Origin: an uncultured Candidatus Saccharibacteria bacterium
GTDB taxonomy: Bacteria; Patescibacteriota; Minisyncoccia; Minisyncoccales; Staskawiczbacteraceae
Length of the DNA: 64,000 bases
Reading direction: 5' to 3'
Assembly: GCA_964356545.1 (NCBI GenBank)
Contig: CAYHHX010000001.1
Span: 1,918-65,917 of the forward strand
Of the stretch, positions 7,737 through 55,475 are shown piece by piece; the first letter of the stretch is position 1; each line of letters opens with the position of its first letter. The position numbers were made by a program, and so were the translations under genes. Below the pieces are notes generated by a model. The model did not search any database. It was given only the letters and a program-made list of their open reading frames with translations, and had not been told where the DNA came from.

Positions 7737-8184
7737 ATCTTAACAAGATGAGTGATTGCTCTTTATTAAATTGAGGAGAGGAAAGTCCGAACACCATCCT
7801 GAACTGATTTATCAGTGAAGGATAAAATAGTAGTGGCTAACAGCCATCCATAGTAATATGCGAGGTGCGAACAGTGACGCCGAGTTTCGAAAGAAACAAG
7901 GCACCGAGTATATAAATTTATTTATGTGCGAGGTGAATTCAACTGAAAAGTTGAAGTGAAACGGCTAAATCCTTATTGGGTGCAAGAACAAAGTCCCGCC
8001 CCCTAAGCAGTTAATTTTTATCAGGAAAAACCTGAGAGAGCTCTAATAGATATATTTTTTTGAGTTCTTGAATTACAGCATAGGGGGCGGGATTAAAAGT
8101 AGTTCGCTTGAATCAAGAAGTAATTCTTGGTCTAGACAGATAATCACATAAAACAGAATTCGGCTTACGGTCTTGTTAAGATAA
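7737..8184 (+). ncRNA. rnpB: RNase P RNA, bacterial type A.
   Basis: P4 strands 'GAGGAAAGTCCGaACac' (~7783) and 'ACAGAAttCGGCTTAcGG' (~8153). The P1 helix is formed by 7737-7748 'atcttaacaaga' pairing with 8171-8182 'tcttgttaagat'. Confidence 0.85.
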
Positions 8185-14935: not shown

Positions 14936-15081
14936 CTGAACTCGTTTGATTGGTAGGAGGGCTTTTGTCCTTATTATCTCCGTTTTCAAACACTTATCAA
15001 ATGTGAGCGGCAGTAATGCCGTCTTTTTTGAAAATATTGATTATTTTATTGATAGATGGTACCATAAATAAAGTAAAGGTA

Positions 15082-15222
15082 ATGGAAATAAGAAAACAGA
15101 TTTTTATTTATAAAAATTCAAAGGTTGAAAATTTAATGTTTCAAGTTTTTTCTATTATTTATCATAAATATCACGAGAAAAGTTTTTCTCTTTTAAAAAA
15201 TATTTCTGGAAGTTTTATTTAA
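15082..15222 (+). CDS. Conserved small protein (46 aa). Divergent copy A of a four-member repeated unit.
   Basis: Aligns codon by codon with the copies at 44364, 49220 and 54666 (I-R/E-K/R-Q-I-F/Y...KNSKV...MF...FS...KY-H/Q-EKS-F/L-SL...IS...F-I). The differences are mostly synonymous or conservative (GAG/GAA, AAA/AAG, TTT/TTC). SD 'aaagg' upstream. Confidence 0.5.
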   Translation: MEIRKQIFIYKNSKVENLMFQVFSIIYHKYHEKSFSLLKNISGSFI

Positions 15223-15252
15223 AAATACACCCATTAGTGGGTGTATTTTTTT
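15223..15252 (+). terminator. Intrinsic terminator of repeated unit A.
   Basis: 'atacacccattagtgggtgtat' hairpin plus T7. The same hairpin, with compensatory loop changes, ends all four units. Confidence 0.7.
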
Positions 15253-15288: not shown

Positions 15289-15354
15289 TGCCCCCCCAAC
15301 AAATTAACTTTATTTTGAAATATTATTTAATAATCAATATAATCAAAGTTGAGT

Positions 15355-18300: not shown

Positions 18301-21300
18301 GGTGGTGGTTCAAAGTTTTTAAAGTTAGCTCAAACCGTAAATTATAATTTTGATGGCGATGCCACTCATCGAGATACAGCTGAAGGTTATACTTACGACA
18401 ATTCCAATGGTAATGTCACCCAGAAAGTTCAATGGGGCGAAGTGTCGGGGCAAGACAATGGAACATTTACTGATACTGGATCTGACAAATTTACCACTGA
18501 CTACGCTTATGCCTCCAATGCAAGCTTATCTATTGTTGGATTGCCATCAAAAGAAACGATAACAGATCAAAACTCGTTGAAGGTAAAGGAAAGCAAGTTT
18601 TATTACGATCTGCAGGCCTTAGGTAGTATTATTCAAGGGAACCTTACCAAAAAAGAGGATTGGAAAGTTGGTACTGCTTATATTAATAACCAAACAACTT
18701 ATAACAGCTACGGCTTGGCAACCGTTTCAACAGATCCGCGAGGCAAAACCACCAAGTATGTGTATGATGCTCATAATCTCTATCCTGCCACAGTAACCAA
18801 TGCCAAAAATCAATCCACTAACTATTTGTATAACTATGCTTTAGGGAAAATGACCCAGAAGACCGATCCAAGTAAAAGGGTATTTCAGTATGTCTACGAT
18901 GGATTGGGGCGTCTCATTGAAGAAAAACAACCGGATATTGCAACACCTTCAACATTAATAACAAAGGCAATCTATGTGTATACCGACACTCCAAACGCAG
19001 TAAGTGTTAAAAAATCCAGTTATTTGGACGCATTAAATTTTGCAGAATCATACACGTATTTTGATGGTTTAGGCAGAAAAATTCAGGAAAGGCAGGAGGC
19101 CGAGGGTACAGTTTTTGCCGTAAAAGATTATATCTACAATAATTTGGGTCTGATTACAAAAGAATCTCTACCTTATTTTTCAGCAAATTTGTCTAAGACT
19201 TCGCCAACCATTGATTCTGCGCTCTATATCAATTACAAATATGATGCCCTGGGCCGTGTAGTTTCTGTAACCAATGCAGTTGGCACTACCACAAATATGT
19301 ACAATGATTGGAAGCTTACGGTAATCGATGTAGGTGGTAAGTCTAAAGATTTATATAAAAATGCTTATGGCAGTTTAGTGCAGGTTGATGAGCATAACTC
19401 CCTTGATACATATAGCACATTGTATAACTACAACTATTTAGGAAACATTACTAAGATTACTGATGCGCTTTCTAATATCCGTAAATTTACTTATGATGGT
19501 TTGGGCCGTAGGTTAACCGCAGAAGATTTGCATGTATCATCAGATACAAGTTATGGTATCTGGACATATACCTATGACAATGCAGGTAACTTGACCCAAA
19601 CACTAGATCCAAATGGCCAAAAAGTAATCTACACTTACGACAACCTTAATCGTGTTCTCAAAGAGGACTATATTGGCGTTACTGGTACAGAGGCTACCTA
19701 TGCCTATGATGCTGGAACAGACGGCATTGGTAAATTAACCAATGTTATTAATAGCTCAATTACTAAAAACTATACCTACAATGCTTTGGGTTTATTGAAA
19801 AAAGAAACAGATAAGTTTGGCCTTACTATCTACATCACGACATATAGTTACGATAGGCAAGGCAACCAGACTACAGTTACCAATCCAGATAATTCTAAGG
19901 TGCAATATATTTACAACACAGCAGGCTTGCTTGACCAGGTCAAACGCAAGGAATCCATTGATAGCGCGTTTGTTAGTGTTGTCAATAATTTTGATTATTC
20001 TCCCGAGGGCAAAGTTACTATTCAGGAAAACTATAACGGAACAACGAACACTAATACGTATGATGTTGCCAAGCTCTACCGATTAACTAGTAAAGTTGCC
20101 ACCACTGCTAACGGAGACCGCATCCAGGATTTAAGCTACACATATGATTTAGTAGGTAATATCACTAAAATTGTAGATGCGTCCACCACTGCAACCGCCA
20201 AAACTTCCGACTACACATATGATGACCTCTATCGTTTAACCTCTGTAACTGTAACAGGCGTTGCTGTTGGCCAAGAGCCATACATTCAAACGTATAGTTA
20301 TGATGCAATAGGAAATATCATTACAAAATCGGATGTTGTTGGATCTTATATATATGACGGTACTATCTACGCCAATCCCCATGCAGTCACTATCATTGGT
20401 TCTGCAACTTTTTCGTACGATAACAATGGCAATCTGTTAAACTCTACCAGCGGTTTTATTAATACATGGGACTATAAGAATCGTTTAATACAATCAGTCA
20501 AAGAAACAATAACAAACAGCTACGGATATGATGCCGAAGGCCAAAGAGTAAAATTAATTACCGCCGATAAAAACACTTATTATCCAACTAAATCCTATAA
20601 CATTACTTTTCTAAATTCTGATACCCAAAACCCAACATCTATTACAAAGCACATCTTTGCAAACAGCATAGACATTGCTACAATAGAAGGCACAGGGGCA
20701 ACTTCTCAAATCTACTACGCATCCAAGGATTTACTGAACAGCTCTAGCATCATAACCGACAGTGTTGGCGTAATTGCTGAGACTATGGATTACTTCCCAT
20801 TCGGCGGAATCAGAATAGACCAAAAAGTCACTGGCAGCTCTTTCTCGGAACAACGTAAATTCATCGGCCAGGAATACGACCAAGACACAGGCCTAAACTA
20901 TCTTAATGCGAGATACTACAACGCAACTATTGGAAGGTTCATTTCCCAAGACCCAATGTTTTGGCAACTGCCAAATGAGCTACTCGCCGACCCGCAACAA
21001 TTGAATTCCTATTCCTACGCCCGCAATAACCCGATAATAGGTAGTGACCCGAGCGGGTTATTAACCGTCATTGTTCCTGGAACCAGCTATAATTCAAAAG
21101 ATTGGTCGTCTTCTGGCTCGATGTCAAATTTTATCTCTTCAGTTGGCAAGACCTTCAATGAAACACATCAAACAAGTGTGATAAACGATAAAAGTAATTG
21201 GTCGGGTGGCGATAATTCTAATGCTCGTCAAAAAGCAGCAGAACATATCACAGGGTTTATAAAAGACTATAAGTTTGCTGATGGAGAACAGTTAAACATT

Positions 21301-21729
21301 GTTGGACATAGCCATGGCGGAAATATTGGAATTCTTGTTAGTCAAAAAACAGAAAGAAAAATAGATAATCTTGTAACTCTTGGTACTCCAGCTAGAAGCG
21401 ATTACCAACCAAATTATGATATGGTGGGACGTCACATAAATGCATACAGTAATGTAGATATGATACAGGGAGGCGGAGGTGGACAAACAAATTTATCTGC
21501 AGTGCTTCTTGGGACTGTTGGTAATGCTTTTGGTATTCCTGGAGCAATTATTGGATATGCGCTTGGTAATATATTAGGCTGGGGAGAATTTGGTTCTGCC
21601 GGTAGAAAATTTAGTGGAGCGGAAAACATTAGTGTAACTAAAGAAGCTGGTCGTTTTAGTCCCTTTAGTTCTCATTCTAATTTATTGCAAAGTAGCGTTT
21701 GGTCAAGGGTTGATAAATTAATTAAGTAG
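15355..21729 (+). CDS. Giant secreted polymorphic toxin: signal peptide, SpvB-like domain, FG-GAP/VCBS-like repeats, RHS/YD repeats, RHS core (DPxGL), and a C-terminal alpha/beta-hydrolase (lipase/esterase-like) toxin domain.
   Basis: Signal peptide 'KKVTAYLLIALFFYFPLESVFA'. SpvB-like 'GMAPKVSLYYNSQ...IVGFGWDLDIPKIER'. Repeated 'DINGDGLxD' / 'DWNGDGKDD' motifs. Numerous YD repeats ('YTYDxxGNL', 'YxYDxLxRL'). RHS core 'RYYNATIGRFISQDP...NSYSYARNNPIIGSDPSGLL'. The C-terminus carries 'IVGHSHGGNI' (a GHSxG nucleophile elbow). ATG 15355 is preferred over the TTG at 15349. Confidence 0.85.
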   Translation: MNKIKNNFHKNKLAFSKKVTAYLLIALFFYFPLESVFAEENISENINKEETSASQLVDSEKNNQEKPLAEKNIIGDTKNNIQQKGERKNNEKEDNTDKKERNKKKKNDSDDEELIQAQAAGSSSGSSNNNQFAFNPAAKIMMPEADTTTGALVYSYPIEVPSGRNGMAPKVSLYYNSQKNDNASIVGFGWDLDIPKIERVNKHGVNKLYDYQDFQSSLSGELVNVSGNDYGAKIENGSFLKYQLNNEIWTTTDKKGTIYKFGSSNSSKIYNLSDTSKIYSWYLDEIIDTNGNFIKYTYIKDNTDNFLYPDKIIYTGNGELSGIFSVEFKKESRPDSYTINNAGFYQKIDERINSIETYIAGNLNRKYDLTYGMGDNGKRSMLEKITESGRDNLGITATLPSFDIAYTEGNIGLADAPSISYPWVTETDSNGNSYTTPFTLADQSIRIIDINGDGLKDIVKSSVAYGQWGAMYPNFWVLKNNGSGWVVDNSWSQPTYSYVNGSGRTISEYFTFSNAIDVGDWNGDGKDDLIKFWVENLGGGANKQHAVVLLNTGAGWTQNTNIETDTPTYMSYNAGIQNLYLYSGSSGSSRFIDLNGDGLIDCINAWNHQINGINYPSFAVLYNDGEDLKWDPTVLQLYFKNSPTSASSPLALTNSIKILDINGDGLVDFMSAHNYQINGIDNPSFWVLINNGHGWDQDFGITHPRYTALDVNDNLQTNYFSSTSGWQVVDINADNLPDFIIFAPLNSGGGTYKKRKTVLINTGKGWIQDDSLINIGDYSYTYNGSTQTNYPSSSDAGSAFLDINGDGLVDIAHPSFYQQQGIYYTINWTLIGSGKIANTLSKITLPEGGSYDIAYKMTSAYRDVLGNLLNSSLLLAYNTVEKIIQNDGNGITHIANYKYEGGHFFYGSAFNKRFAGFSIIYKNDFAGNTTKTYYHTANQSDSNYGEFQDEYWKIGKAYSIEQYDNANHLYTKTINKWDSFDLGGGSKFLKLAQTVNYNFDGDATHRDTAEGYTYDNSNGNVTQKVQWGEVSGQDNGTFTDTGSDKFTTDYAYASNASLSIVGLPSKETITDQNSLKVKESKFYYDLQALGSIIQGNLTKKEDWKVGTAYINNQTTYNSYGLATVSTDPRGKTTKYVYDAHNLYPATVTNAKNQSTNYLYNYALGKMTQKTDPSKRVFQYVYDGLGRLIEEKQPDIATPSTLITKAIYVYTDTPNAVSVKKSSYLDALNFAESYTYFDGLGRKIQERQEAEGTVFAVKDYIYNNLGLITKESLPYFSANLSKTSPTIDSALYINYKYDALGRVVSVTNAVGTTTNMYNDWKLTVIDVGGKSKDLYKNAYGSLVQVDEHNSLDTYSTLYNYNYLGNITKITDALSNIRKFTYDGLGRRLTAEDLHVSSDTSYGIWTYTYDNAGNLTQTLDPNGQKVIYTYDNLNRVLKEDYIGVTGTEATYAYDAGTDGIGKLTNVINSSITKNYTYNALGLLKKETDKFGLTIYITTYSYDRQGNQTTVTNPDNSKVQYIYNTAGLLDQVKRKESIDSAFVSVVNNFDYSPEGKVTIQENYNGTTNTNTYDVAKLYRLTSKVATTANGDRIQDLSYTYDLVGNITKIVDASTTATAKTSDYTYDDLYRLTSVTVTGVAVGQEPYIQTYSYDAIGNIITKSDVVGSYIYDGTIYANPHAVTIIGSATFSYDNNGNLLNSTSGFINTWDYKNRLIQSVKETITNSYGYDAEGQRVKLITADKNTYYPTKSYNITFLNSDTQNPTSITKHIFANSIDIATIEGTGATSQIYYASKDLLNSSSIITDSVGVIAETMDYFPFGGIRIDQKVTGSSFSEQRKFIGQEYDQDTGLNYLNARYYNATIGRFISQDPMFWQLPNELLADPQQLNSYSYARNNPIIGSDPSGLLTVIVPGTSYNSKDWSSSGSMSNFISSVGKTFNETHQTSVINDKSNWSGGDNSNARQKAAEHITGFIKDYKFADGEQLNIVGHSHGGNIGILVSQKTERKIDNLVTLGTPARSDYQPNYDMVGRHINAYSNVDMIQGGGGGQTNLSAVLLGTVGNAFGIPGAIIGYALGNILGWGEFGSAGRKFSGAENISVTKEAGRFSPFSSHSNLLQSSVWSRVDKLIK

Positions 21730-44029: not shown

Positions 44030-44363
44030 CACATTGGTTTGCGTAAAGGCGAATGATTTTATAGGAGTAACTCGTAGTTACTCCTTTTTATTTTCTGAAT
44101 TTATCACTATTCTTTCCTACTTTTCTTTGTCCGGAGATGAAAAAAAATGTCATTAATCAGTTAGTTACCCAGTACGAAAGAACTTTTGGCAAAGCACCCC
44201 ATGAATTATGCAAAGAGGTTGTCCAAGATTTAATAGCAGAAATGCCCCCAGAAGAAATTCCTTCAAGTTTAAAGTAAGTACTATTTAGTACACCAGTGGC
44301 CATAGTGTTGTTTTTTTGAAAAAACTGTTGATTGTTTTACTAACAGGTGGTATTATTAGCATA

Positions 44364-44513
44364 ATGAAGACAATAGAAAGAGGTAAGCAGATTTATATGC
44401 ATAAAAATTCAAAGGTTGGAATTTCAATGTTCCGCGCTTTTTCTAGTGTTCCTGATAAATATCAGGAAAAGAGTCTTTCTCTTTCAAAAAGTATTTCTGA
44501 AAATTTTATTTAA
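44364..44513 (+). CDS. Conserved small protein (49 aa), copy B of the repeated unit.
   Basis: Near-identical to copies C and D. Promoter TTGATT-N17-TATTAT lies directly upstream, giving a leaderless or near-leaderless start. Terminator at 44514-44543. Confidence 0.5.
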   Translation: MKTIERGKQIYMHKNSKVGISMFRAFSSVPDKYQEKSLSLSKSISENFI

Positions 44514-44543
44514 AAATACACTCATTAGCGGGTGTATTTTTTT
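44514..44543 (+). terminator. Intrinsic terminator of unit B.
   Basis: 'aatacactcattagcgggtgtattttttt'. Confidence 0.7.
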
Positions 44544-44545
44544 AA

Positions 44546-44620
44546 AAATTATGCATTTTGGAGAACATTTAACAATCGATGGATACGGTGGTAACTTTGA
44601 AAAGCTAAATGATGAAGAAT
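44546..44620 (+). pseudogene. 5' fragment of a pyruvoyl-dependent S-adenosylmethionine decarboxylase-like gene (speH/speD-like), truncated by a REP.
   Basis: 'MHFGEHLTIDGYGGNFEKLNDEE' matches the AdoMetDC N-terminus pattern G-x-H-L-x-x-D/E-x-Y-G-C/G-x-F-x-K-L-N-D. The frame then runs into the REP at 44617-44650. Confidence 0.45.
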
Positions 44621-44650
44621 GGTGGCTGTCCCCATTGTCCCTCCCATTAC
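44617..44650. repeat. REP element (reverse orientation).
   Basis: 'gaatggtggctgtccccattgtccctcccattac'. Confidence 0.6.
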
Positions 44651-44698
44651 TCATTACTGCAGAGGTCAGCCGTATTGCATTATAAGAAAAATCATGGC

Positions 44699-45581: not shown

Positions 45582-46094
45582 ATGAATGTTATAAAAGTAA
45601 TTAGGGATGAGGATTTTGGTTTGGATAATCCAGTCCCAAAGAATTATAAGGAGCGCAAAGCAAGTCGTTCCATTGTTTTTGATGAGAATAGACATGTTGC
45701 TTTACTTCATGTAACAAAAAAGAATTATCATAAACTACCTGGTGGAGGCATGGAAAAAGGGGAAGAAATTTCTGAAACACTTGAGAGAGAATTATTTGAA
45801 GAAATCGGATGTTCCGTAAAAGATGTTCGAGAGCTTGGTATCATTGAAGAGTATCGTAATAAACTGGAACTTCATCAAATTTCCTACTGTTTTTTAGCTA
45901 ATCTTATCGGAGATAAGGGAACTCCACACTTTAAAGATGATGAAATAGATGATGGTTTTAAAATAACATGGATGGATATACGGGATGCGATTAGAACATT
46001 AGAAAGTGAAATAAATACCAGAGATTATAGGGATAAATTTATATGCTTACGAGACCTCATATTACTAAAAGAGGCAGTAAAAGTTTACAAGTAA
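45582..46094 (+). CDS. NUDIX hydrolase.
   Basis: Nudix box 'GGGMEKGEEISETLERELFEEIGC'. Confidence 0.75.
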   Translation: MNVIKVIRDEDFGLDNPVPKNYKERKASRSIVFDENRHVALLHVTKKNYHKLPGGGMEKGEEISETLERELFEEIGCSVKDVRELGIIEEYRNKLELHQISYCFLANLIGDKGTPHFKDDEIDDGFKITWMDIRDAIRTLESEINTRDYRDKFICLRDLILLKEAVKVYK

Positions 46095-46167: not shown

Positions 46168-47130
46168 ATGGAAAATACTGAAAAGAAATTCTCCATCGCT
46201 GGCGCCAATTTCAAAATTAAATCAAATTTTGAAATAGAAAGCTTGTTGTACGAACCGCAACCATACAATTTACATATCAACTATTTAATTAAAGACAAAG
46301 TTAAAAAGAGAGACATTTTCACTATCGTTATTCTTAGAAATAACAAGAACTTAAGTCTCCATGTAAAGGGTAGAAACCTTACCATTAGTGGCAAGATAGA
46401 CGCTATGTTTGAACGCGAATACAATCCTCAATTCGGACTTTTTGGTAATAAGGGGATAATACATCACTTTATTCTACATACTCTTGAAAACTATTTGAAA
46501 TTCAGCTTTTTGCATGCATCGGCGATACTTCATCCACACAGAAAAAAAATATGTATTGCACTTGGTCCAAGTGGTTCTGGTAAAAGCGTCTTTGTTTCAA
46601 ATGCCCTAAAAATAGGTTGGAAACTAATTGCAACTGAACAAGTTATAATTAGTGCTGACGGAGAAATATTTAAGGGAAATCAGTATGATAATATTTCACC
46701 AAAAGCAGTTGATTTTATAGAATCACAGCTAGACAGGGCAGTTGTCTTTAAAGAAAAACAACTGATTGAACCCACTGGTCAAAAATTACTTGCAAATCTC
46801 TCAGAATACGGGATCAGCGTAAATAAACTTTTACTACAAGGTTACGAACTTAACCTTGTAGTCCTTAATTTTGGTAATCTTTCTCATAAAAATGGTACAC
46901 CTATTATTGATGAAGATTTTTTACTAAGAGTTATGCAATACAGTTCAAGTGAAAAGATATGTGCTCCTATAATTTTTGATAAAAATATATTTAAACTTAA
47001 TATGAATGGGAATTCAAAAAATAGAACAACTACGGTTAATTTAATTATTGGTAAGGCAAATAAAAAAATCGTTCTTGGTGGTAATTATACGGATTTTGAG
47101 AGATGGTTACAGTACGAATATTTAAATTAA
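46168..47130 (+). CDS. HprK C-terminal-domain-like P-loop protein.
   Basis: 'LHASAILHPHRKKICIALGPSGSGKSVFVSNALKIGWKLIATEQVIISADGEI' resembles the HPr kinase C-terminal domain P-loop and flanking region. Very A+T-rich, K/N/I-rich. Confidence 0.4.
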   Translation: MENTEKKFSIAGANFKIKSNFEIESLLYEPQPYNLHINYLIKDKVKKRDIFTIVILRNNKNLSLHVKGRNLTISGKIDAMFEREYNPQFGLFGNKGIIHHFILHTLENYLKFSFLHASAILHPHRKKICIALGPSGSGKSVFVSNALKIGWKLIATEQVIISADGEIFKGNQYDNISPKAVDFIESQLDRAVVFKEKQLIEPTGQKLLANLSEYGISVNKLLLQGYELNLVVLNFGNLSHKNGTPIIDEDFLLRVMQYSSSEKICAPIIFDKNIFKLNMNGNSKNRTTTVNLIIGKANKKIVLGGNYTDFERWLQYEYLN

Positions 47131-47170: not shown

Positions 47171-47581
47171 ATGGAAAAACTAAAACAAGCAAGGTGGGCA
47201 AATTTTGATGAAATAACATCTCGCATTATTTCATTCGAAGGCAAACAACCTATTCAAATGAAGCATAGCGATGGTACAGCATTGCCACTACTAGTAGACG
47301 ATTCAAAAACTAATAAATTTGGAGCAGATATTATTAGGTTTGCGCCAGGAGAAGGTGTTGGACTTCATAAGCATATTGGTGCGCACATTCTTATGGTAAC
47401 AAAAGGCAGTGGTATACTTGTGTATGAGGACGAAAGACACTCTATGTTCGAAGGGATGATTTATTTAGTTCCATCAAATATTGCTCATGCAATTGAGGCG
47501 ACAACAGAGATAGTACTGGTAGCAATTGGCAATGACTATAGACCAGCTAATAGTGAAGAGCGTCTCAATATTGTAGGCTAA
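47171..47581 (+). CDS. Cupin-domain protein.
   Basis: 'PGEGVGLHKHIGAHILMVTKGSGILVYEDE...LVPSNIAHAIE' is the cupin_2 two-motif pattern (G-x5-HxH...G...H). Confidence 0.65.
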   Translation: MEKLKQARWANFDEITSRIISFEGKQPIQMKHSDGTALPLLVDDSKTNKFGADIIRFAPGEGVGLHKHIGAHILMVTKGSGILVYEDERHSMFEGMIYLVPSNIAHAIEATTEIVLVAIGNDYRPANSEERLNIVG

Positions 47582-47597
47582 TTAATGTGACAAGAAT

Positions 47598-48974
47598 ATG
47601 ATTTTTAACCTTGAACTTTTTAAACAACATTTACAAGATGCGGAAGTTATCATGTTTAAAAATGAAATTAGGGGATCTTTGACATACTTGCAATATGGGA
47701 TGGAAGTTAGAAATAAAATATACTCACTGGCCATGGATATGCTAAGAGATGATGAATTTAAGGAAATTAAATTGTCGGATATTATAAGAAAATCAGATGT
47801 CGTAAAACTCGATTCGATTTCTTTAATATCGGAAAATTATTTTTCCATTATTGAAAATAACTTTAATATGGCGGCGGGGCACGAAATACCGTTTTATTTG
47901 TTTTTAAAGAAATATTTAAAACTTTTTCGTCCTGTTGTTTTTCCTATTAAATTTTTTAATTTTGGATCAGTTTTCAGATTTCCAAAGAAGACAAAGTTCC
48001 CTTTCAACTTAGGAGAGCGGAGGTCCTTTTTAGAATGCTTTATAGTTTACAAAAACGAAAAAAGTAAAGAAAAGTATATTAATTGGGCAGTTGAGTGGAA
48101 TAGACAATTAATAAAAGAAAAATTACATTTACCGTCAATTGAGGTCGAACGTCCTTTGATAACTAACAAATCTTTTTCTCGTAAAACTATTTGTATAGAT
48201 TCGTTGACTCCTATAGGTATAAGCGTTATTACGGGAATGTCCTACTTTCACGATGATATATTTACAAAGTTATTAGAAATAAAATATAAACACAATCTTA
48301 CCGGTAAAAGTAAATTATTTCATGCCATGCATTTTGGAATTAGTGATAACTTATTTTTTTCCTATCTGATTAATTGTCATGACGGAAGAGGGTTTCGTAT
48401 GCTTAATAATATTGCTCCACTTCATATTGAAATCATAATAAGCGATGATGTGAAACCCAAACCCTTTGAATTGGAGTTGATTACTAAATATCTTGATGAA
48501 AAAAAGTATCGGTATAATGTAGAATATGCGAAGAAACTGCAAAAACCGCGTTTTTATATCAAAAAAAATATCATAAATGGTACACCCCTCACCATTATTT
48601 TTTCACATTATAATAGTAGTAGTATGACTTTATTTTATAGAGGAGATTTCGCTACTCAAGAATTTAAGATAAACGACTTGTATCTTATTGATGATTTTTT
48701 GAAGAAAAATGACGAAGAAATTATTTGTCATTTTAAAATAATAGAAGCTGAAACTATAGTTGAATGTGATACGATTGAAGATGTAAACAGATCGCTCTTG
48801 GATGGAAAAGTGTGCAAAATTTACTTAAAAAATAATGATAATAATATTCAAAACTGGAATCAAAAATTATTGCTTGTCCATGTGCTTGGTTTTTGCATTA
48901 GTAAAAATAGTGGTTACGACATCTTAACAGGAGATTCTGTCTTTACATTAGCTTATATCTCAAAAAGGTCATAA
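47598..48974 (+). CDS. Class II aminoacyl-tRNA-synthetase-like paralog (catalytic-core-like, no obvious anticodon-binding domain), otherwise hypothetical.
   Basis: 'FGSVFRFPKKTKFPFNLGERRSFLECFIVY' resembles class IIa aaRS motif 2 (G-x-x-F-R-N-E-x7-L-x-R-V-R-E-F-x-x-x-E...F), with Pro in place of the canonical Glu. Extremely A+T-rich gene. Confidence 0.35.
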   Translation: MIFNLELFKQHLQDAEVIMFKNEIRGSLTYLQYGMEVRNKIYSLAMDMLRDDEFKEIKLSDIIRKSDVVKLDSISLISENYFSIIENNFNMAAGHEIPFYLFLKKYLKLFRPVVFPIKFFNFGSVFRFPKKTKFPFNLGERRSFLECFIVYKNEKSKEKYINWAVEWNRQLIKEKLHLPSIEVERPLITNKSFSRKTICIDSLTPIGISVITGMSYFHDDIFTKLLEIKYKHNLTGKSKLFHAMHFGISDNLFFSYLINCHDGRGFRMLNNIAPLHIEIIISDDVKPKPFELELITKYLDEKKYRYNVEYAKKLQKPRFYIKKNIINGTPLTIIFSHYNSSSMTLFYRGDFATQEFKINDLYLIDDFLKKNDEEIICHFKIIEAETIVECDTIEDVNRSLLDGKVCKIYLKNNDNNIQNWNQKLLLVHVLGFCISKNSGYDILTGDSVFTLAYISKRS

Positions 48975-49120: not shown

Positions 49121-49183
49121 ATTTAATATTTTTTATTTGAATAAAATAATTAAGTGGCTATAGTGTTGTTTTTTTAAAAACTG

Positions 49184-49212
49184 TTGATTGTTTTATTGAC
49201 AGGTGGTATTAT
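49184..49212 (+). promoter_or_regulatory. Promoter of repeated unit C (TTGATT-N17-TATTAT). The same arrangement is present in units B and D.
   Basis: TTGATT 49184-49189, 17-nt spacer, TATTAT 49207-49212. The ATG at 49220 sits ~7 nt downstream, so the transcript would be leaderless. Confidence 0.5.
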
Positions 49213-49219
49213 TAGCACG

Positions 49220-49369
49220 ATGAAGACAATAGAAAGAGGTAAGCAGATTTATACGCATAAAAATTCAAAGGTTGGAATTTCAATGTTCCGCGCTTTTTCT
49301 AGTGTTCCTGATAAATATCAGGAAAAGAGTCTTTCTCTTTCAAAAAGTATTTCTGAAAATTTTACTTAA
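49220..49369 (+). CDS. Conserved small protein (49 aa), copy C. Identical to copy D.
   Basis: MKTIERGKQIYTHKNSKVGISMFRAFSSVPDKYQEKSLSLSKSISENFT. See copies A and B for the selection argument. Confidence 0.5.
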   Translation: MKTIERGKQIYTHKNSKVGISMFRAFSSVPDKYQEKSLSLSKSISENFT

Positions 49370-49398
49370 AAATACACCAATTAGCAGGTGTATTTTTT
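49369..49398 (+). terminator. Intrinsic terminator of unit C.
   Basis: 'aatacaccaattagcaggtgtatttttt'. The stem is preserved relative to units A and B despite loop changes. Confidence 0.7.
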
Positions 49399-49415
49399 GA
49401 TTAAGTTAATGATTA

Positions 49416-49490
49416 TGCATTTTGGGGAACATCTTACAATTGATGGATATGGCGGTCTTTTTGAAAAGCTAAATGATAAAAATGGTGTCT
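49416..49490 (+). pseudogene. Second 5' fragment of the AdoMetDC-like gene (MHFGEHLTIDGYGGLFEKLNDKNGV*), ending in a degenerate REP.
   Basis: Same N-terminal peptide as at 44546, followed by 'aaaaatggtgtctgatccc' (a degenerate REP). Confidence 0.4.
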
Positions 49491-49641
49491 GATCCCACGT
49501 AGTATGTGAACCAGAGCTGGTGATTGACAACACTTTTTGGTTAATATAGTATGAAACTGAAGGATTAAGAAGCTTTGCGTTTTGCATATTTTTCCATGAT
49601 CCTTGTTGTTCTTTGAAAAAATAAAGGGAGGTTGGTAAAAC

Positions 49642-50670
49642 ATGAAGTACAATAACCATCTGAATCCGATGAGTGTGAGAGAGTTTTATTCCGATTCTGC
49701 TATGCCACTTTTTTACCAGGAGTGGGCTAATAACTCTGGTAAAGAACCTTTGAGTTCCAAAAAAGTCAGAATTGCTATTACCGAAAAGTGTAACTTCGCG
49801 TGTCCATTTTGTTATAACGAAGGAATGTCTAATATTTCAAAGATATTGAGCGTAGGAGATATTAGGTTAATTGCCGAGGCAATATCTCCTTACGTTTCAG
49901 GATTAAAGATTGTTGGTGGTGAGCCTTTGTTACATCCTCAGTTTGGCGAGGTTGTTGAGCTCTGTTCTAAAACTTGTTCAACAACTGTCACTACTAATGG
50001 GTTTTTCCTTGACCGATGGACTAAGTATTTGGAGAGACTTACTGGAATAACGGTAAGTATCCAATCGCTCAACCCAGAAATCTATCGGTCCTTAATGGGT
50101 ACTCGCTTTGGACCAGAAGTAGTATTAAGGCAGATATCCCTATTTACAGAAAAAACAGAGATACCAGTTTCTGTAAATTGCGTTTTGACAAATGAAAATT
50201 CTCCCTCGATTTTAAATTTCATCGAGGAAATAGTATCTTGTGGCGCCAATGCTGTAAATTTGTTGGGACTCCTTTGTATTACAGACAAGGACAAAGAGGG
50301 GTATTATCCCCTTACATCCATTGTTGCTATTCTGACCGACAAGTATGGTCAGCCCGAAGTTGTTTCAAGTACGAGATTGAGATTTAGAATAAAAGAAAGC
50401 GTCCACACAGATGTTGTATACCAATTCTGTATGGTGGGCTGTGGTGTTTGTCGAACCGACGGATTTATTCGATTCGATCCAACGCCTGCTATTTCTTACT
50501 GCCTAGCGTCAGGTCCCATATCGATAAAGGAGGAAATTGATTCGAAAGATCCCTTAAAAATTCGTCAGTTGTTTTTAAGGGCTGTAAACCAGATGGGTCA
50601 ACCAACTGGTTATAAATACCAGGTTGTCTCCAGGAGACCAGACTCCAAGGGGATATACTCCTTATTGTAA
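49642..50670 (+). CDS. Radical SAM enzyme with a C-terminal Cys-rich (twitch/SPASM-like) region.
   Basis: 'ITEKCNFACPFCYNEG' (CX3CX2C) and a second cluster 'QFCMVGCGVCRTDG'. Strong SD 'aaagggagg' precedes the ATG. Putative promoter TTGACA ~49527. Confidence 0.7.
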   Translation: MKYNNHLNPMSVREFYSDSAMPLFYQEWANNSGKEPLSSKKVRIAITEKCNFACPFCYNEGMSNISKILSVGDIRLIAEAISPYVSGLKIVGGEPLLHPQFGEVVELCSKTCSTTVTTNGFFLDRWTKYLERLTGITVSIQSLNPEIYRSLMGTRFGPEVVLRQISLFTEKTEIPVSVNCVLTNENSPSILNFIEEIVSCGANAVNLLGLLCITDKDKEGYYPLTSIVAILTDKYGQPEVVSSTRLRFRIKESVHTDVVYQFCMVGCGVCRTDGFIRFDPTPAISYCLASGPISIKEEIDSKDPLKIRQLFLRAVNQMGQPTGYKYQVVSRRPDSKGIYSLL

Positions 50671-50839
50671 AGTACACGAGGGGTGCATACATCTGCATCC
50701 CTTTTTCTTTATTATTTTTCTAGATAGTTATAAAATATATATCTTTATGTAGGGGTGGTAGAGGGATTACTAATTTGGGTGCAACCAAATTATTTAAAGG
50801 TTCAACTCCTTTCCCCTACTCTGCCATTTTTTAATAAAA

Positions 50840-52219
50840 ATGAGAAAAATAACTAATAAATCTGAATTCAAAAAAGAATATCAAAAACAGTGTCTTTTCT
50901 TTGGTAAAAATTTAAAAGTTAAAGGTTTTATTAATACTAATATAATAAAAGTAATTGGTAGTAATTTAGAAATATATAAACAGATATTGTCTCAAGAAAA
51001 AAAGCCCATAAAACTAAAGTATATTTATGATAGAATAGAGAATTATAATAATTACTTAAAATTTTTAAGGAACGTATCAGAAAAAAATATCACAAAACCA
51101 CCTCTTGCTCTTTATTCATCCACTGCAAACCTAATTAATAATGGAAATTATGATCTTAGAATTAATTATGTATTAAATATATTTAATACAAATCACCACT
51201 TCTTATTTATTTTTTTAGAAGAGCCTATTTTTCATTCCGATAAAGATTTTAAAATAACAATCGTAAAAGAAAAATTAACAATAGATTTTAAAAGACATAA
51301 ATTTTTAGAAATAAAAAACAATATTTCTTATTGGGACAGAAAAATAAAAAGAGATATTGGGTCGTATATAGAAAATTTATCATTTAAAAATAAAGAATGG
51401 CTCAAAGAAAGATATTTTACGATTTTTGACTTTATTTTTAAATTAATTTTAGATTCTAATTCATATGAAGAACTATCAAAAAAAGTAGCAATTGACTGTT
51501 TGTTAATAGAAGGTTTCCAAGGAGTAATATTAAATCAATTAGATTTGATTGATCTACTAAAAAATAGAGTAGACTTCAGAGAATTATTTAATAATAAAGA
51601 CATTGAAATAGATATAATAAAATGCTGTGTTTGCGATAAACAGCACATAGGTCCATTTAAAAGAAATCTATCCGAAGGAATTTCGTGTGGCGATTTAAAC
51701 TGGTCTATTATATCTAATTCAAAAATAAGATTTAAAAAAGCTCTATTACCCTTTGTAGTATTATTTTACTTGAATATTATACCCGTATTATCTGATCATA
51801 ATTATTCAGAAAAAATCAAGAAATTTGAATCGACGAATAAATTAGATAAAGAAAATATTTGGTTTGCCTTACGCAAAATAAAATTCATATCTCTTTTCAA
51901 AGAATCAATGACATATATTAATATTTTAGCCGAGGGAGTAAATAAAGATATATATAAGCATATTAAAAATTGGAATAATCAAAAAGCAATTATTATTGGC
52001 AATCAAAGCTTTTATAAATTGAAAAACAAACAAGCTGATTTTATTTCCTTAAATAAATCGAATTTTTCTAAAAATATATTGAATATTATAAAAAAGAGAG
52101 AAGAGTTAAGGGTACTCAAAAAGTGGCATGAGGCTGATGCACTGAAAATAAAGCTTATATACTTAGGGATTGATTTTATTGAATCTGGAGGTAAGACTTT
52201 AGTTAGGGAAATTGGCTAA
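50840..52219 (+). CDS. Hypothetical protein (very A+T-rich, N/K/I-rich).
   Basis: 459-aa ORF with no recognisable motif. Composition is even more A+T-rich than the window average. Confidence 0.35.
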   Translation: MRKITNKSEFKKEYQKQCLFFGKNLKVKGFINTNIIKVIGSNLEIYKQILSQEKKPIKLKYIYDRIENYNNYLKFLRNVSEKNITKPPLALYSSTANLINNGNYDLRINYVLNIFNTNHHFLFIFLEEPIFHSDKDFKITIVKEKLTIDFKRHKFLEIKNNISYWDRKIKRDIGSYIENLSFKNKEWLKERYFTIFDFIFKLILDSNSYEELSKKVAIDCLLIEGFQGVILNQLDLIDLLKNRVDFRELFNNKDIEIDIIKCCVCDKQHIGPFKRNLSEGISCGDLNWSIISNSKIRFKKALLPFVVLFYLNIIPVLSDHNYSEKIKKFESTNKLDKENIWFALRKIKFISLFKESMTYINILAEGVNKDIYKHIKNWNNQKAIIIGNQSFYKLKNKQADFISLNKSNFSKNILNIIKKREELRVLKKWHEADALKIKLIYLGIDFIESGGKTLVREIG

Positions 52220-52246: not shown

Positions 52247-52921
52247 ATGAATAATCCGCTCAAAGCTATCGTATTATTCTTTGAAGGAGAAATTTCAAGA
52301 ATAGAGAAAATAAAAAAAATCAAAAAGAGAAGCAATAAATTTGTGGTTCTCTGTGGTCCAAGTGGAAGTGGCAAAAATATGATAATAAAACATCTTATTG
52401 ATCATTACGATTTCAGGGGACTTCCTTCTTTAACCACAAGATCGTTACGAAAGGGTGATGGTGAGCTTGAGATATTGTCTATGGGCAGGGATGAATTTAT
52501 GGAAAGGGAGCTCGATGGTAAAATATTTTTACCTGTACATAATTATGGTAACTTATATGGGTATGATATAAATACAGTATTAAATAGCATTATTCAGAAA
52601 AGTAGTATTGTTATTGAATCTCCTACAGCCAACTTAACGACAGATGTGGCGTATTTCTTACCTGAAGCCATGGTAATAGGAATAATACCATCAACTACTA
52701 ATGAGTTAGAACATCAATTGAATCTTCGGGGACTAAATGAAAAAAGAGACAAAAGGATACGATTATTAAATACAGAAATTGAAAAAGAACATATTATGGG
52801 TGCTTCAGAATTAATGGAAATTAATCAAGTAGTTCCTATTCCCGGGGTACCACAAGATACGCTTTCTCAAATTGACAGACTAATGGAAGAAAAAGGATTT
52901 AAAAAGAAAATAGCAGAATAA
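52247..52921 (+). CDS. gmk: Guanylate kinase-like P-loop kinase.
   Basis: 'VVLCGPSGSGKNMI', 'SLTTRSLRKGDGE' (compare Gmk 'SxTTRxPRxGExxG') and 'GNLYGYDINTV'. Confidence 0.5.
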   Translation: MNNPLKAIVLFFEGEISRIEKIKKIKKRSNKFVVLCGPSGSGKNMIIKHLIDHYDFRGLPSLTTRSLRKGDGELEILSMGRDEFMERELDGKIFLPVHNYGNLYGYDINTVLNSIIQKSSIVIESPTANLTTDVAYFLPEAMVIGIIPSTTNELEHQLNLRGLNEKRDKRIRLLNTEIEKEHIMGASELMEINQVVPIPGVPQDTLSQIDRLMEEKGFKKKIAE

Positions 52922-53067
52922 ATATTTATTCTATAAAAAGTGATGTAAGTTGACTAATTATTTCAATAGTGATAAATTAAACACAATTCAATTGCACCTT
53001 AAAAACTTAATAAAGTACGGGCGATTGATTGCAAGCATGGTCTATGAAACAACGAAAGGAAAATCTC

Positions 53068-54453
53068 ATGTCTCAGTCAGTCTACCTCTTTGATACCTAT
53101 CAAAGAGAGAAAAGGTTGTTCATTCCACTTGAACAAGGCAATATCAAGATATACACTTGTGGACCCACGGTGTATGACTACCCGCACATCGGCAATCTCC
53201 GTGCATACATTTTTGCGGATGTTCTTCGCAGGATGTTTGAATACAACGGATACAAAGTGCGACACGTGATCAATATCACTGATGTTGGTCATCTTACCTC
53301 TGATTCTGACTACGGCGAGGACAAAATGGAGTTAAGTGCCCAGAGACAAAAGCGTTCTGCATTAGAGATCGCCGATTTGTATACGGGAATCTTTAAACAG
53401 AATCTTTTTGACCTCAACATCAAAGATCCTACTGTCTGGTGCAAGGCGACCGATCACATCAGTGAGCAGATTGTCTTGATCCAACGGTTGGAGAAGGCTG
53501 GGTATACATATTTGACTTCCGACGGTGTCTACTTTGACACCTCTAAGCTGTCAAACTACGGTTATCTTGCTCGTTTGGATGTTGAAGGAATCGAGCCAGG
53601 TGCTCGGGTTGAGTTGGGAGAAAAAAGGAATCCGACCGACTTCGCACTTTGGAAACTCTCTCCGAAAGAGAAGACAAGGCAGATGGAATGGCCGAGTCCA
53701 TGGGGGGCTGGATTTCCTGGCTGGCACATTGAGTGCAGTGCTATGGCGATGAAGTACTTGGGAGAGATGATAGATGTTCACACTGGTGGCATTGATCATA
53801 TTCCAGTACATCATACTAATGAAATAGCGCAGTCGGAGTCCGTAACCGGTCAGAAGTTCGTCAACTACTGGCTACATGTGGCGTTTCTGACTGTCGAAAG
53901 TCAGAAAATGTCAAAGAGCGCAGGGACATTTATTACCTTGCAAGAGGTTATCGATCGTCACTACGACCCTTTGGCGTTTCGCTACATGGCACTGACTTCT
54001 CACTACCGCGCTGGTCTAAATTTCACATGGGATGGATTAAAGGGTGCTCAAAAGGCACTCGCCTCCTTACGTGAAAAGGTGTCTCAGTACCAGCGCAAAG
54101 AGGTGGCACCTGACGAAGAATCTCTGACGGAGTTTAGGAGTCGCATTAACAATGATCTGAACACTCCCCAAGCTTTGGCGTTTCTATTTGAGGTTGTCAG
54201 GTCAAATTTGCTTGACACTGTCAAGCGGGCAACCATGCTTGAGTTTGACAAGGTGCTGGGGCTCAAGTTGGATCAAGTTTCGGCGGAAAGCGATGTACCG
54301 CAAGATGTGGTGGAGCTCTTGGTCCAACGCCAACAGTTCCGCAGGGAGAAAAATTGGAAGGAATCCGACCGCGTTCGTCAGGAGATCGTCGCTAAAGGAT
54401 ACGATGTCGAAGATACGCCTGAAAGGTCACGAGTTGTCAAAAAAGGGTTGTAA
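53068..54453 (+). CDS. cysS: Cysteinyl-tRNA synthetase.
   Basis: HIGH-class motif 'PHIGNLRAY', 'KMSKSAGTF' and a CysRS-like zinc site 'WHIECSAM'. Start at ATG 53068 after SD 'aaaggaaa'. The gene is markedly more G+C-rich than its flanks. Confidence 0.85.
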   Translation: MSQSVYLFDTYQREKRLFIPLEQGNIKIYTCGPTVYDYPHIGNLRAYIFADVLRRMFEYNGYKVRHVINITDVGHLTSDSDYGEDKMELSAQRQKRSALEIADLYTGIFKQNLFDLNIKDPTVWCKATDHISEQIVLIQRLEKAGYTYLTSDGVYFDTSKLSNYGYLARLDVEGIEPGARVELGEKRNPTDFALWKLSPKEKTRQMEWPSPWGAGFPGWHIECSAMAMKYLGEMIDVHTGGIDHIPVHHTNEIAQSESVTGQKFVNYWLHVAFLTVESQKMSKSAGTFITLQEVIDRHYDPLAFRYMALTSHYRAGLNFTWDGLKGAQKALASLREKVSQYQRKEVAPDEESLTEFRSRINNDLNTPQALAFLFEVVRSNLLDTVKRATMLEFDKVLGLKLDQVSAESDVPQDVVELLVQRQQFRREKNWKESDRVRQEIVAKGYDVEDTPERSRVVKKGL

Positions 54454-54555: not shown

Positions 54556-54665
54556 GACAATAAAATAGAAACAGAAATAAAATCTATTTTGAAATTAAGT
54601 GGCTTACCGTCGCTTTTTTTTAAAAACTGTTGATTGTTTTATTGACAGGTGGTATTATTAGCACG

Positions 54666-54815
54666 ATGAAGACAATAGAAAGAGGTAAGCAGATTTATAC
54701 GCATAAAAATTCAAAGGTTGGAATTTCAATGTTCCGCGCTTTTTCTAGTGTTCCTGATAAATATCAGGAAAAGAGTCTTTCTCTTTCAAAAAGTATTTCT
54801 GAAAATTTTACTTAA
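54666..54815 (+). CDS. Conserved small protein (49 aa), copy D.
   Basis: Identical to copy C, including the promoter (54630-54658). Terminator at 54815-54846. Confidence 0.5.
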   Translation: MKTIERGKQIYTHKNSKVGISMFRAFSSVPDKYQEKSLSLSKSISENFT

Positions 54816-54857
54816 AAATACACCAATTAGCAGGTGTATTTTTTGATTAAGTTAATG

Positions 54858-55475
54858 ATTGATTTTACAGATTCAAAATCGGTAATTGGGCTCATCGCAG
54901 GCATTATTGCTTTTACGGCTTATATTATCTATATAATTTCAATATTAAAAGGCAGAACCAAGCCAAATAGGTCAACTTGGTGGATTTGGTCGTTTATGGG
55001 ATTGGTGGTTGGACTAAGTTATTATTTATCAGGCGCCGTTAATACTATTTGGGTTCCAGTAGTTGAGTTTATAGGGCCATTATCTATTGCACTATTGTCT
55101 GTAAAATATGGAGAAGGGAAGTTGAGCGATAAAACAGACTTAATTTGTCTCGTTGGCGCGGTTTTGAGTGTAATTTTATGGATAATATTTAATAATCCTG
55201 TTATTGCTTTAGTAACCAATTTAGCGGCCGATTCATTTGCTATTGTTCCTACTATTAAAAAATCATATTTACGACCAGAAGGAGAAGATTTTTGGGCATG
55301 GCTTGGCACAGGCACCGCCGACAGTTTGAATTTCTTTGCTGTTGAAAGATTTTCCTTTGCGATTCTTATTTATCCGATTTATATGCTCGTTTCAGACCTT
55401 ATTATAGTTATAGTATTATTAATGAAGAAAAAAGATATTATGAAAGATACTAGTTTTCTTAGAAAAAAAATATGA
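54858..55475 (+). CDS. Hypothetical multi-pass membrane protein whose start codon lies inside the 3' end of repeated unit D.
   Basis: The ATG at 54858 is the same 'gttaATGatt' that precedes the AdoMetDC-like fragment in unit C. About six hydrophobic helices. Confidence 0.45.
   Translation: MDFTDSKSVIGLIAGIIAFTAYIIYIISILKGRTKPNRSTWWIWSFMGLVVGLSYYLSGAVNTIWVPVVEFIGPLSIALLSVKYGEGKLSDKTDLICLVGAVLSVILWIIFNNPVIALVTNLAADSFAIVPTIKKSYLRPEGEDFWAWLGTGTADSLNFFAVERFSFAILIYPIYMLVSDLIIVIVLLMKKKDIMKDTSFLRKKI

Follow-up and report, generated by a model that had tools for sequence, protein, structure and literature searches.

A rare radical SAM protein related to MoaA, with an apparently rebuilt auxiliary-cluster site, is encoded alongside a tRNA-Cys-like gene in an uncultured Candidatus Saccharibacteria bacterium

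In a 64,000-nucleotide stretch of DNA from an uncultured Candidatus Saccharibacteria bacterium (the window), we analyzed an intact open reading frame (ORF) at 49642..50670 (+) encoding a 342-aa radical S-adenosylmethionine (SAM) protein, a "type 1" member of a small, MoaA-derived twitch family. Our analysis makes it moderately likely that this protein is a neofunctionalized MoaA-type (twitch) radical SAM enzyme with a nucleotide-type small-molecule substrate, acting within a conserved module. The core of this module would consist of the radical SAM gene, a 459-aa protein with a domain resembling cysteinyl-tRNA synthetase (CysRS), and a P-loop protein resembling nucleoside monophosphate kinases, with a tRNA-Cys-like gene and a CysRS gene accompanying them. 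In the mechanism that we propose, a [4Fe-4S] cluster on C50, C54, and C57 would cleave SAM to generate the 5'-deoxyadenosyl radical, and a C-terminal [4Fe-4S] cluster on C263, C267, C270, and C287 would lie above the active site, at the position that GTP has in MoaA. As the substrate, a nucleoside triphosphate or diphosphate (perhaps one of guanine) or a nucleotide sugar would be most likely, and not a ribosomal peptide, and the resulting nucleotide may be produced for tRNA-Cys or cysteine chemistry or be linked to it.

The features that define the radical SAM superfamily were all present in the 342-aa protein: a CX3CX2C motif, a match to the Pfam model PF04055 (Radical_SAM; E = 1.6e-19, 71.1 bits versus a cut-off of 29.5), and an alternating beta/alpha core in an AlphaFold2 (AF2) model that we built from 11 sequences (predicted local distance difference test [pLDDT] score of 85.5). 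The motif CNFACPFC, C50-X3-C54-X2-C57, is encoded at 49789..49812 (+) within the family signature LTExCNFxCxFCYNEG, and its three cysteines were invariant across the family alignment. The open reading frame, the Pfam match, and the conservation of this motif in the family bear out an earlier reading of the sequence alone (the sequence-only reading), which had described a radical SAM enzyme with CNFACPFC. A second set of cysteine codons, C263-X3-C267-X2-C270-X16-C287 at 50428..50502 (+; VYQFCMVGCGVCRTDGFIRFDPTPAISYC), is conserved family-wide and aligns to the region of MoaA that contains C261, C264, and C278. Its first three cysteines form CMVGCGVC, which had been noted as a second cluster motif and which is conserved in the family; the motif lies 213 residues past the first one and not about 250 aa as had been estimated, and the conserved C287 follows another 16 residues on. 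Both the first and second motifs were kept in about 20 homologs with 28 to 79% identity, indicating that their presence is not due to chance, and the single exception to the conservation of the distal cysteines was a Ser at the position of C267 in P0019. According to the AF2 model and the alignment, C263, C267, C270, and C287 lie within a strand-loop-helix-strand segment aligned to the auxiliary-cluster region of MoaA.

The gene also carries its own candidate expression signals, in agreement with the Shine-Dalgarno sequence and putative promoter proposed for it earlier. The Shine-Dalgarno sequence AAAGGGAGG is at 49623-49631 (+), 5' of the start codon, and a promoter-like site, TTGACA-N17-TAGTAT, is found at 49524..49552 (+) as a consensus match only. 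On the 3' side, a terminator-like hairpin at 50678-50703 is followed by a T-tract (together 50678..50713, +). Because these three elements frame the gene, it looks monocistronic. The N-terminal segment of the family, M-x-Y-N-x-x-L-N-P-M, is conserved among homologs, and for this reason the ATG at 49642 is the likely start of the gene and the public gene call P0001, which starts at M10, is probably too short. Private features of the family are an N-terminal extension of about 38 residues, with two short helices in the AF2 model, and a C-terminal MGxPTG motif.

Profile searches against radical SAM subfamilies, a check suggested in the sequence-only reading, placed MoaA nearest to the protein, yet below every MoaA cut-off. 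The top NCBIfam match was moaA_archaeal (TIGR02668), which covered nearly the full length with 105.8 bits versus a cut-off of 325, and two other MoaA models gave 88.8 versus 284 bits (TIGR02666) and 82.3 versus 231 bits (NF001199), leaving the score under half of each equivalog cut-off. NCBIfam models for viperin, a tungsten-cofactor maturase, PqqE, and many maturases of ribosomally synthesized and post-translationally modified peptides (RiPPs) scored far lower than archaeal MoaA. Every member of the radical SAM family matched MoaA models best and over the full length, with scores of 106 to 155 bits and a maximum of 155. Against PDB sequences, the family profile found MoaA (3e-19) and AbmM (8wm2; 7e-19), followed by SkfB, BlsE, and viperins. 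A Foldseek search with the AF2 model similarly ranked MoaA (1tv7/2fb2) first, with template modeling (TM) scores of 0.65 to 0.73, and placed SuiB, viperins, SkfB, DesII, AbmM, and BlsE below it. MoaA, viperins, AbmM, BlsE, and DesII are enzymes that act on nucleotides or nucleotide sugars.

Compared directly with MoaA (archaeal type; 1tv7/2fb2), the protein has the same overall fold, length, and radical SAM core and a putative C-terminal twitch domain with a candidate auxiliary-cluster site, and the two have in common the motifs CxxxCx(F/Y)C(H/Y)xEG, GGEPL, and TTNG. However, identity to MoaA is only 23 to 28%, and the protein differs by about 38 additional, conserved residues at its N terminus, a different C-terminal tail, and the lack of a molybdenum cofactor (Moco) context among annotated neighbors. 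MoaA is a representative of the SPASM-twitch family (PMC9026282). The sequence-only reading had suggested a twitch/SPASM-like auxiliary cluster; full-length homology to MoaA makes a twitch-type second cysteine cluster, with a single auxiliary cluster, a reasonable assignment, and the SPASM part of the suggestion falls away, as the protein has four distal conserved cysteines where the SPASM motif, which binds two auxiliary clusters, has seven and produced no match to PF13186.

The MoaA auxiliary cluster has three Cys ligands with N1 of GTP as the fourth, R17, R266, and R268 are strictly conserved in MoaA, and the C-terminal GG motif is essential, archaea excepted (PMC9026282). After transferring the Staphylococcus aureus MoaA numbering via archaeal MoaA and the family alignment, we found that MoaA R17, R268, C261, and C278 correspond to R43, R277, C270, and C287 of the radical SAM protein, all of them conserved. 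Two other positions are replaced. MoaA C264 corresponds to Asp273 (Asp, Asn, or Glu across the family), and MoaA R266 corresponds to Phe275 (Tyr or His in two family members), so that two of the three MoaA arginines are kept. C263 and C267 are new cysteines located just upstream of the MoaA-equivalent sites, which leaves four candidate cluster ligands in a CX3CX2CX16C arrangement as opposed to the three of CX2CX13C in MoaA. Because the C264 and R266 equivalents are replaced and C263 and C267 are new, the auxiliary-cluster site appears to be rebuilt relative to MoaA around four candidate ligands. Further equivalents of the MoaA substrate site are K89 (R71 in MoaA), TTNG, and N179, the last two being conserved. 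The partial retention of MoaA substrate-site residues (R43, R277, K89, TTNG, and N179) supports a nucleotide-type substrate. The protein ends in ...GIYSLL and does not have the C-terminal GG; this difference has little diagnostic weight, as family C termini vary and archaeal MoaA needs no GG. Neither moaC nor any other Moco gene appeared in the annotations of the window segment or of the homologous loci examined. Judged by its sequence, the protein is homologous to MoaA but lies outside MoaA membership.

The partner protein of 459 aa is encoded at 50840..52219 (+) and contains a conserved KCxxCx3HxGP...C motif. Only 5 members of its family were found in 5.8 billion proteins, and all 5 are encoded within two genes of a radical SAM gene of the family described here. 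We did not detect any Pfam, NCBIfam, PHROG, or PADLOC match for this protein, and its AF2 model was unusable (pLDDT of 44). Residues 408-450 (nt 52061-52189) resemble the anticodon-binding domain of CysRS: the C-terminal region of about 45 residues aligned with the local CysRS alignment in hhalign with a probability of 80% (E = 1.3e-5), versus <1% for two control alignments, and it matched the CysRS structure 3tqo in the PDB with E = 0.01. The gene at 52247..52921 (+) encodes a 224-aa P-loop protein that is like guanylate kinase without being a true Gmk (Pfam Guanylate_kin, 4e-8; TIGR03263, 51.5 versus 160 bits). A full-length cysteine-tRNA ligase is encoded at 53029..54453 (+), with 431.4 versus 340 bits for TIGR00435 over profile positions 3-465 of 466 and 25 versus 23 bits for CysS_C.

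The radical SAM gene, the tRNA-like gene, the 459-aa gene, and CysRS occur together in all four related genomes, namely, the window and the loci L001, L092, and L093, in which the CysRS orthologs beside the radical SAM gene are 64 to 67% identical. The guanylate-kinase-like gene is present in three of the four, being fused to a NUDIX domain in L001, present in L093, and not seen in L092, and the module genes are ordered in three different arrangements. In L092 and L093, the same place beside CysRS is occupied by a gene of the other radical SAM subfamily, which is 28 to 30% identical to that of the window. The GC content at third codon positions of the window-type radical SAM gene is above that of its neighbors and the gene groups with high-GC bacterial members, which suggests that it replaced an earlier radical SAM gene by transfer. 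PADLOC did not produce a match for the module neighbors of the radical SAM gene, nor did a search of plasmid DNA with the region. At L092, a fragment of an IS1595-family transposase (1-444) occupies the place of the L093 kinase-like gene, directly 5' of the tRNA-like gene. L001 has a second CysRS gene beside its radical SAM gene at 11043-12302 (-); the encoded protein is 33% identical to the module CysRS and passes the CysRS cut-off, ends at profile position 401 of 466 and so is without the C-terminal anticodon-binding domain, and is encoded at a GC content nearer the genome average than that of the module CysRS.

The tRNA-like gene at 50749..50820 (+) is 72 nt long, lies 19 nt upstream of the 459-aa gene, and has features of tRNA-Cys, with U-GCA-A in the anticodon loop and U as the discriminator. 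Its counterparts at L001 7129-7200 (-), L092 485-556, and L093 373-444 are likewise always directly 5' of the 459-aa homolog. ARAGORN reported the gene as "tRNA-???", and the Rfam tRNA model matched it with 36.5 bits versus a gathering score of 29. The acceptor, D, and T arms are regular in the Rfam match; the acceptor stem has 7 bp, the D loop has 5 nt, the variable loop has 3 nt, and the T arm is canonical. The anticodon arm is abnormal, with a stem of 7 to 8 bp and a 6-nt loop, GUGCAA, in place of the canonical 5-bp stem and 7-nt loop. The gene is about 92% identical or more across the four related genomes, with pairing in 99% of alignment cells and two compensatory pair changes, of which one falls inside the extended anticodon stem and supports its register. 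A metagenome scan recovered only two already known loci for the tRNA-like gene and found it nowhere else.

The radical SAM family itself is small and sharply delimited. A word-indexed search of 5.8 billion proteins yielded 11 real homologs, and an exhaustive profile search of 1.84 billion representatives yielded about ten clusters above 175 bits, below which came multidomain proteins with summed matches of up to about 160 bits and single-domain proteins of MoaA length at about 129 bits. Among 185,579 species genomes, only 4 carried a family member: two Micrarchaeota, one contig that was binned as Acidoferrum and encodes an archaeal eIF2-gamma, and one short contig of low GC content. Most members are on short contigs. 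The family is scattered among probable Candidate Phyla Radiation (CPR) bacteria, Micrarchaeota, and other lineages. The window itself matches a contig obtained from a groundwater filtrate of 0.1 micron, which suggests that a CPR bacterium is its source. In a neighbor-joining tree, the family formed one clade apart from archaeal MoaA proteins, with two deep subfamilies that are about 30% identical. No family members were found in viral contigs, and the literature searched held nothing specific on MoaA-like enzymes in CPR or DPANN organisms or on the PDB code of the match.

Outside the four related genomes, the neighborhoods of the radical SAM gene fall into several types. On L098, a contig unrelated to the window, an operon contains the radical SAM gene, a gene for a 433-aa distant homolog of the 459-aa protein, and a dTMP-kinase-like P-loop gene, so that the order of radical SAM, 459-like, and P-loop kinase genes is common to both. 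The guanylate-kinase-like protein of the window and the L098 kinase matched at the P-loop only, which makes them unrelated kinases in the same position. Five archaeal-type loci (L007, L009, L010, L096, and L097) have some or all of the genes for a UDP-glucose/GDP-mannose dehydrogenase, an SDR epimerase, a membrane glycosyltransferase family 2 (GT2) synthase with a QxxRW motif, and a KNTase-like nucleotidyltransferase, the set seen at each locus depending on the extent of the contig. The same orthologous partners are present whichever radical SAM subfamily is encoded, NUDIX is sometimes present, and L096 has a DegT aminotransferase. Alignment of the 459-aa protein with the GT2 and KNTase-like proteins gave hhalign probabilities of <1%, with no homology between these lineage partners. 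High-GC bacterial loci, which lie beside dnd genes, encode a 242-aa protein with hydrophobic N-terminal segments (as read from the sequence), a NUDIX protein, a 286-aa protein, and the radical SAM protein; at L002 (7984-9998), these four genes appear to form an operon that ends with the radical SAM gene and adjoins a dndB-E cluster. The 286-aa partner, which recurs in L087, ends in a GGxxxH...-type motif and had no Pfam or NCBIfam match; from the motif, it may be a PPDK_N or phospho-histidine swivel protein, a guess that we did not use as evidence. No homology was found by phmmer for the 286-aa, 255-aa, 320-aa, and 242-aa partner proteins. On low-GC contigs, only a convergent LysR gene is beside the radical SAM gene. 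Recurring companions across these loci are a nucleotide-kinase-like protein in CPR-type loci, a nucleotidyltransferase in archaeal-type loci, and NUDIX in several of both.

Several characterized systems resemble this one in part. AbmM (8wm2) matched the family profile up to and into the N-terminal extension and has the C..C.FC(H/Y)NEG motif in common with it, but its fold similarity (TM of 0.52 to 0.61) is below that of MoaA, and we have no evidence of sulfur insertion here. The albomycin cluster carries a synthetase copy. Its kinases are not homologous to those of the module, and siderophore or peptide-assembly genes are not found here. The combination of a radical SAM enzyme, a nucleoside or nucleotide kinase, and a nucleotide hydrolase, as in AbmM/AbmG and ThmA/ThmB/ThmC, recurs in the loci that we examined. 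AbmM and the kinase AbmG make the albomycin thiosugar, and a radical SAM enzyme, a nucleoside kinase, and an NTPase make up the 4'-thiothymidine cluster (PMC12691670). The kinase, nucleotidyltransferase, and NUDIX companions of the family parallel this radical SAM-kinase-NTPase trio for nucleoside analogs.

Prokaryotic viperins (pVips) share a similar core with the radical SAM protein (PADLOC, 7.5e-20; NF038283, 1.4e-15 but 57.3 bits versus a cut-off of 180), a patchy distribution, and a sometime pairing with nucleotide kinases, and one family locus (L002) lies beside dnd genes. However, viperins have a C-terminal NTP-binding extension and no auxiliary cluster, for which the protein described here has a cysteine motif, and the PADLOC match covers only the core, positions 2-161 of the 257-position profile. 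We rejected pVip or another defense system as an identification, given the core-level pVip match in PADLOC, the lack of members in viral contigs, and PHROG matches to generic radical SAM proteins only. SkfB, SuiB, and PqqE, which appeared among the fold and profile matches, likewise combine a radical SAM core with a C-terminal Cys-rich auxiliary domain. In contrast to these proteins, the family has no RiPP recognition element (RRE), no seven-Cys SPASM motif, and no conserved precursor gene, and the scores of these proteins are much weaker than that of MoaA.

Several findings weigh against a nucleotide-type substrate processed in a conserved module. The partner sets vary with the lineage (459-aa protein, kinase, and CysRS; UDP-glucose dehydrogenase [UGDH], GT2, and nucleotidyltransferase; 286-aa protein and NUDIX; or LysR), which makes it hard to see a single substrate shared by all. 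As this genome has many NUDIX genes, their presence nearby counts for little. With four conserved cysteines, the auxiliary cluster could be completely ligated, which would exclude MoaA-style binding of a base to free iron, and the MoaA R266 and C264 equivalents are among the residues that have been replaced. The similarity of the 459-aa protein to the CysRS domain is moderate, with a single-sequence Pfam E value of only 0.25, and part of the linkage in the four genomes could be inherited synteny; a histidine kinase gene is also syntenic. There is an alternative that we regard as unlikely while giving it some credence, in which the radical SAM protein would be guided by the anticodon-binding domain of the 459-aa protein to modify a nucleotide of the tRNA-Cys-like molecule or the cysteine that it carries, with the kinase and CysRS supplying further steps as in the tRNA-dependent O-phosphoserine (Sep)/selenocysteine (Sec) or pyrrolysine pathways. 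The position of the tRNA-like gene 19 nt 5' of the 459-aa gene in four genomes, its compensatory changes, the resemblance of the 459-aa C terminus to CysS_C, and the constant presence of CysRS in the module, joined in L001 by the second, C-terminally shorter CysRS, all point in this direction. Yet no tRNA, CysRS, or 459 homolog is near the family members of archaeal-type, high-GC, or low-GC loci, L098 combines the genes for the radical SAM protein, the 433-aa protein, and the kinase without a tRNA in its 4.3 kb, and the odd tRNA may be the ordinary tRNA-Cys of the clade, encoded near its synthetase. A bolder proposal, which we consider doubtful, is that the repeat-bracketed module of five parts represents a previously unseen tRNA-dependent pathway in ultra-small bacteria. 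In one version, a dedicated tRNA would be charged with cysteine, which would then be converted or passed to a nucleotide modified by the radical SAM enzyme, giving a cysteinyl-nucleoside, with the module CysRS as a supplier or immunity copy; in the other, the module would be a dedicated recoding pair with a logic comparable to that of pylTSBCD or the Sep/Sec systems.

The archaeal-type loci raise a different alternative, tailoring of a sugar nucleotide for a surface polysaccharide, with a UDP-sugar such as UDP-glucuronate, or its product, as the substrate, similar to the action of BlsE or DesII on sugar nucleotides. This explanation overlaps the nucleotide-type substrate that we favor, and we think it rather unlikely in this narrower form. 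UGDH, SDR epimerase, GT2, and KNTase-like nucleotidyltransferase genes, all or only some of them at a given locus, accompany both subfamilies at five loci despite rearrangements, and the matches by fold and sequence include BlsE and DesII, but no sugar genes adjoin the radical SAM gene in the window or in L001, L092, and L093, and MoaA far outscores BlsE in every family member. An ordinary, divergent MoaA (GTP 3',8-cyclase) for molybdenum cofactor synthesis would account for MoaA models and structures being the best matches and for the retention of the R17 and R268 equivalents. We rejected a genuine MoaA as highly improbable, with scores under half of each cut-off and the C264 and R266 equivalents replaced. 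The family also forms its own clade apart from archaeal MoaA, with a sharp score gap to real MoaA proteins and its private N-terminal extension and MGxPTG motif, and no Moco genes are among the annotated neighbors at any locus.

The sequence-only reading had linked the enzyme to a small ORF about 270 bp upstream and suggested a peptide maturase. This ORF, at 49220-49369, encodes 49 aa, and 272 bp separate its end from the radical SAM start codon. The ORF belongs to a repeat copy ("Unit C") at 49148..49497 (+), which consists of a promoter-like site, the ORF, a terminator hairpin, and a duplicated gene-start fragment. We found four copies of this repeat of about 250 to 350 nt in the window (15024-15251, 44295-44634, 49148-49497, and 54593-54860), which are 78 to 98% identical and each of which precedes a different, unrelated gene. 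Each copy has a promoter-like TTGATT-N17-TATTAT, an ORF of 46 to 49 codons, and its own terminator hairpin. The copy at 54593..54860 (+) is 98% identical to the one at 49148-49497, and the two, as direct repeats, enclose the module, which extends from the radical SAM gene to CysRS. The repeat is known only from contigs of this organism and is absent from all loci with homologs of the enzyme, and Rfam gave a chance-level Yfr10 match at the terminator of the unit and nothing else. Unit C is thus context and not a partner of the radical SAM enzyme.

A RiPP maturase acting on the 49-aa peptide is very improbable. In its favor are the two Cys motifs with a small ORF nearby, the fact that this ORF is still open in the 78%-identical copy at 15 kb, and the presence of SuiB and SkfB among the fold matches. 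The reading is largely refuted by the four-copy repeat, which stands with its own terminator before unrelated genes and is missing from all homologous loci. In addition, the 49-aa peptide contains no cysteine, Pfam detected no RRE domain in the radical SAM protein and no SPASM domain was found, and the N-terminal extension of about 38 residues appears too short for a peptide-recognition domain. No RiPP-maturase model in NCBIfam came near its cut-off, SuiB and SkfB matched the fold only at the level of ordinary twitch/SPASM relatives, and the best matches of the protein act on nucleotides or nucleotide sugars, leaving the proposed link to peptide maturation unsupported. Inspection of the neighbors of homologs for short precursor genes, which had been recommended, revealed no conserved short ORF at any locus. 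Confident assignment to a housekeeping radical SAM family within a conserved non-peptide context had been named as the outcome that would speak against a maturase; the conserved context is indeed a non-peptide one, but an assignment to a housekeeping family was not possible.

The family described here is a sharply bounded and extremely rare offshoot of MoaA with an apparently rebuilt auxiliary-cluster site, found mainly in ultra-small bacteria and archaea. Antiviral and antibiotic nucleotide analogs have come from offshoots with new nucleotide chemistry, viperin and AbmM among them. The strict co-occurrence of the radical SAM family with the five-member 459 family, together with its linkage to an abnormal, conserved tRNA-Cys-like gene, offers a testable entry to what may be new nucleotide or tRNA biochemistry, and it does so in host organisms that are not yet culturable alone. 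Should the module be only a divergent housekeeping cluster, a false RiPP lead will still have been removed.

Additional features of the window concern the repeat and other genes. An inverted GGGGAC(A/G)GCCACC motif adjoins several repeat copies. Two repeat copies have attached to them a duplicated short ORF starting with MHFGEHLTIDGYGG (44550-44684 and 49412-49489). Each of these ORFs terminates prematurely and resembles a gene-start remnant carried along with the repeat, and their start may be similar to the N terminus of SAM decarboxylase. A 2126-codon ORF (15349-21729, +) starts just after the most divergent repeat copy. Upstream of the radical SAM gene, a 458-aa degenerate paralog of archaeal-type prolyl-tRNA synthetase is encoded at 47598-48974 (+), with 76 versus 437 bits for TIGR00408 and 1e-11 for PDB 1nj8. 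It has no Pfam class II match, is not conserved beside the radical SAM gene in related genomes, and has Asn in place of the Arg of 1nj8 that we took as the class II motif 3 Arg. Between this gene and a NUDIX gene at 45582-46094 are genes for a 320-aa P-loop protein with a faint match to HprK-related kinase A (46168-47130, +; E = 0.005) and a 136-aa cupin (47171-47581, +). Finally, a class A RNase P RNA is encoded at 7740-8183 (+); its score of 100.1, barely at the Rfam gathering score of 100, and its long size of 444 nt suggest that this RNA is divergent.

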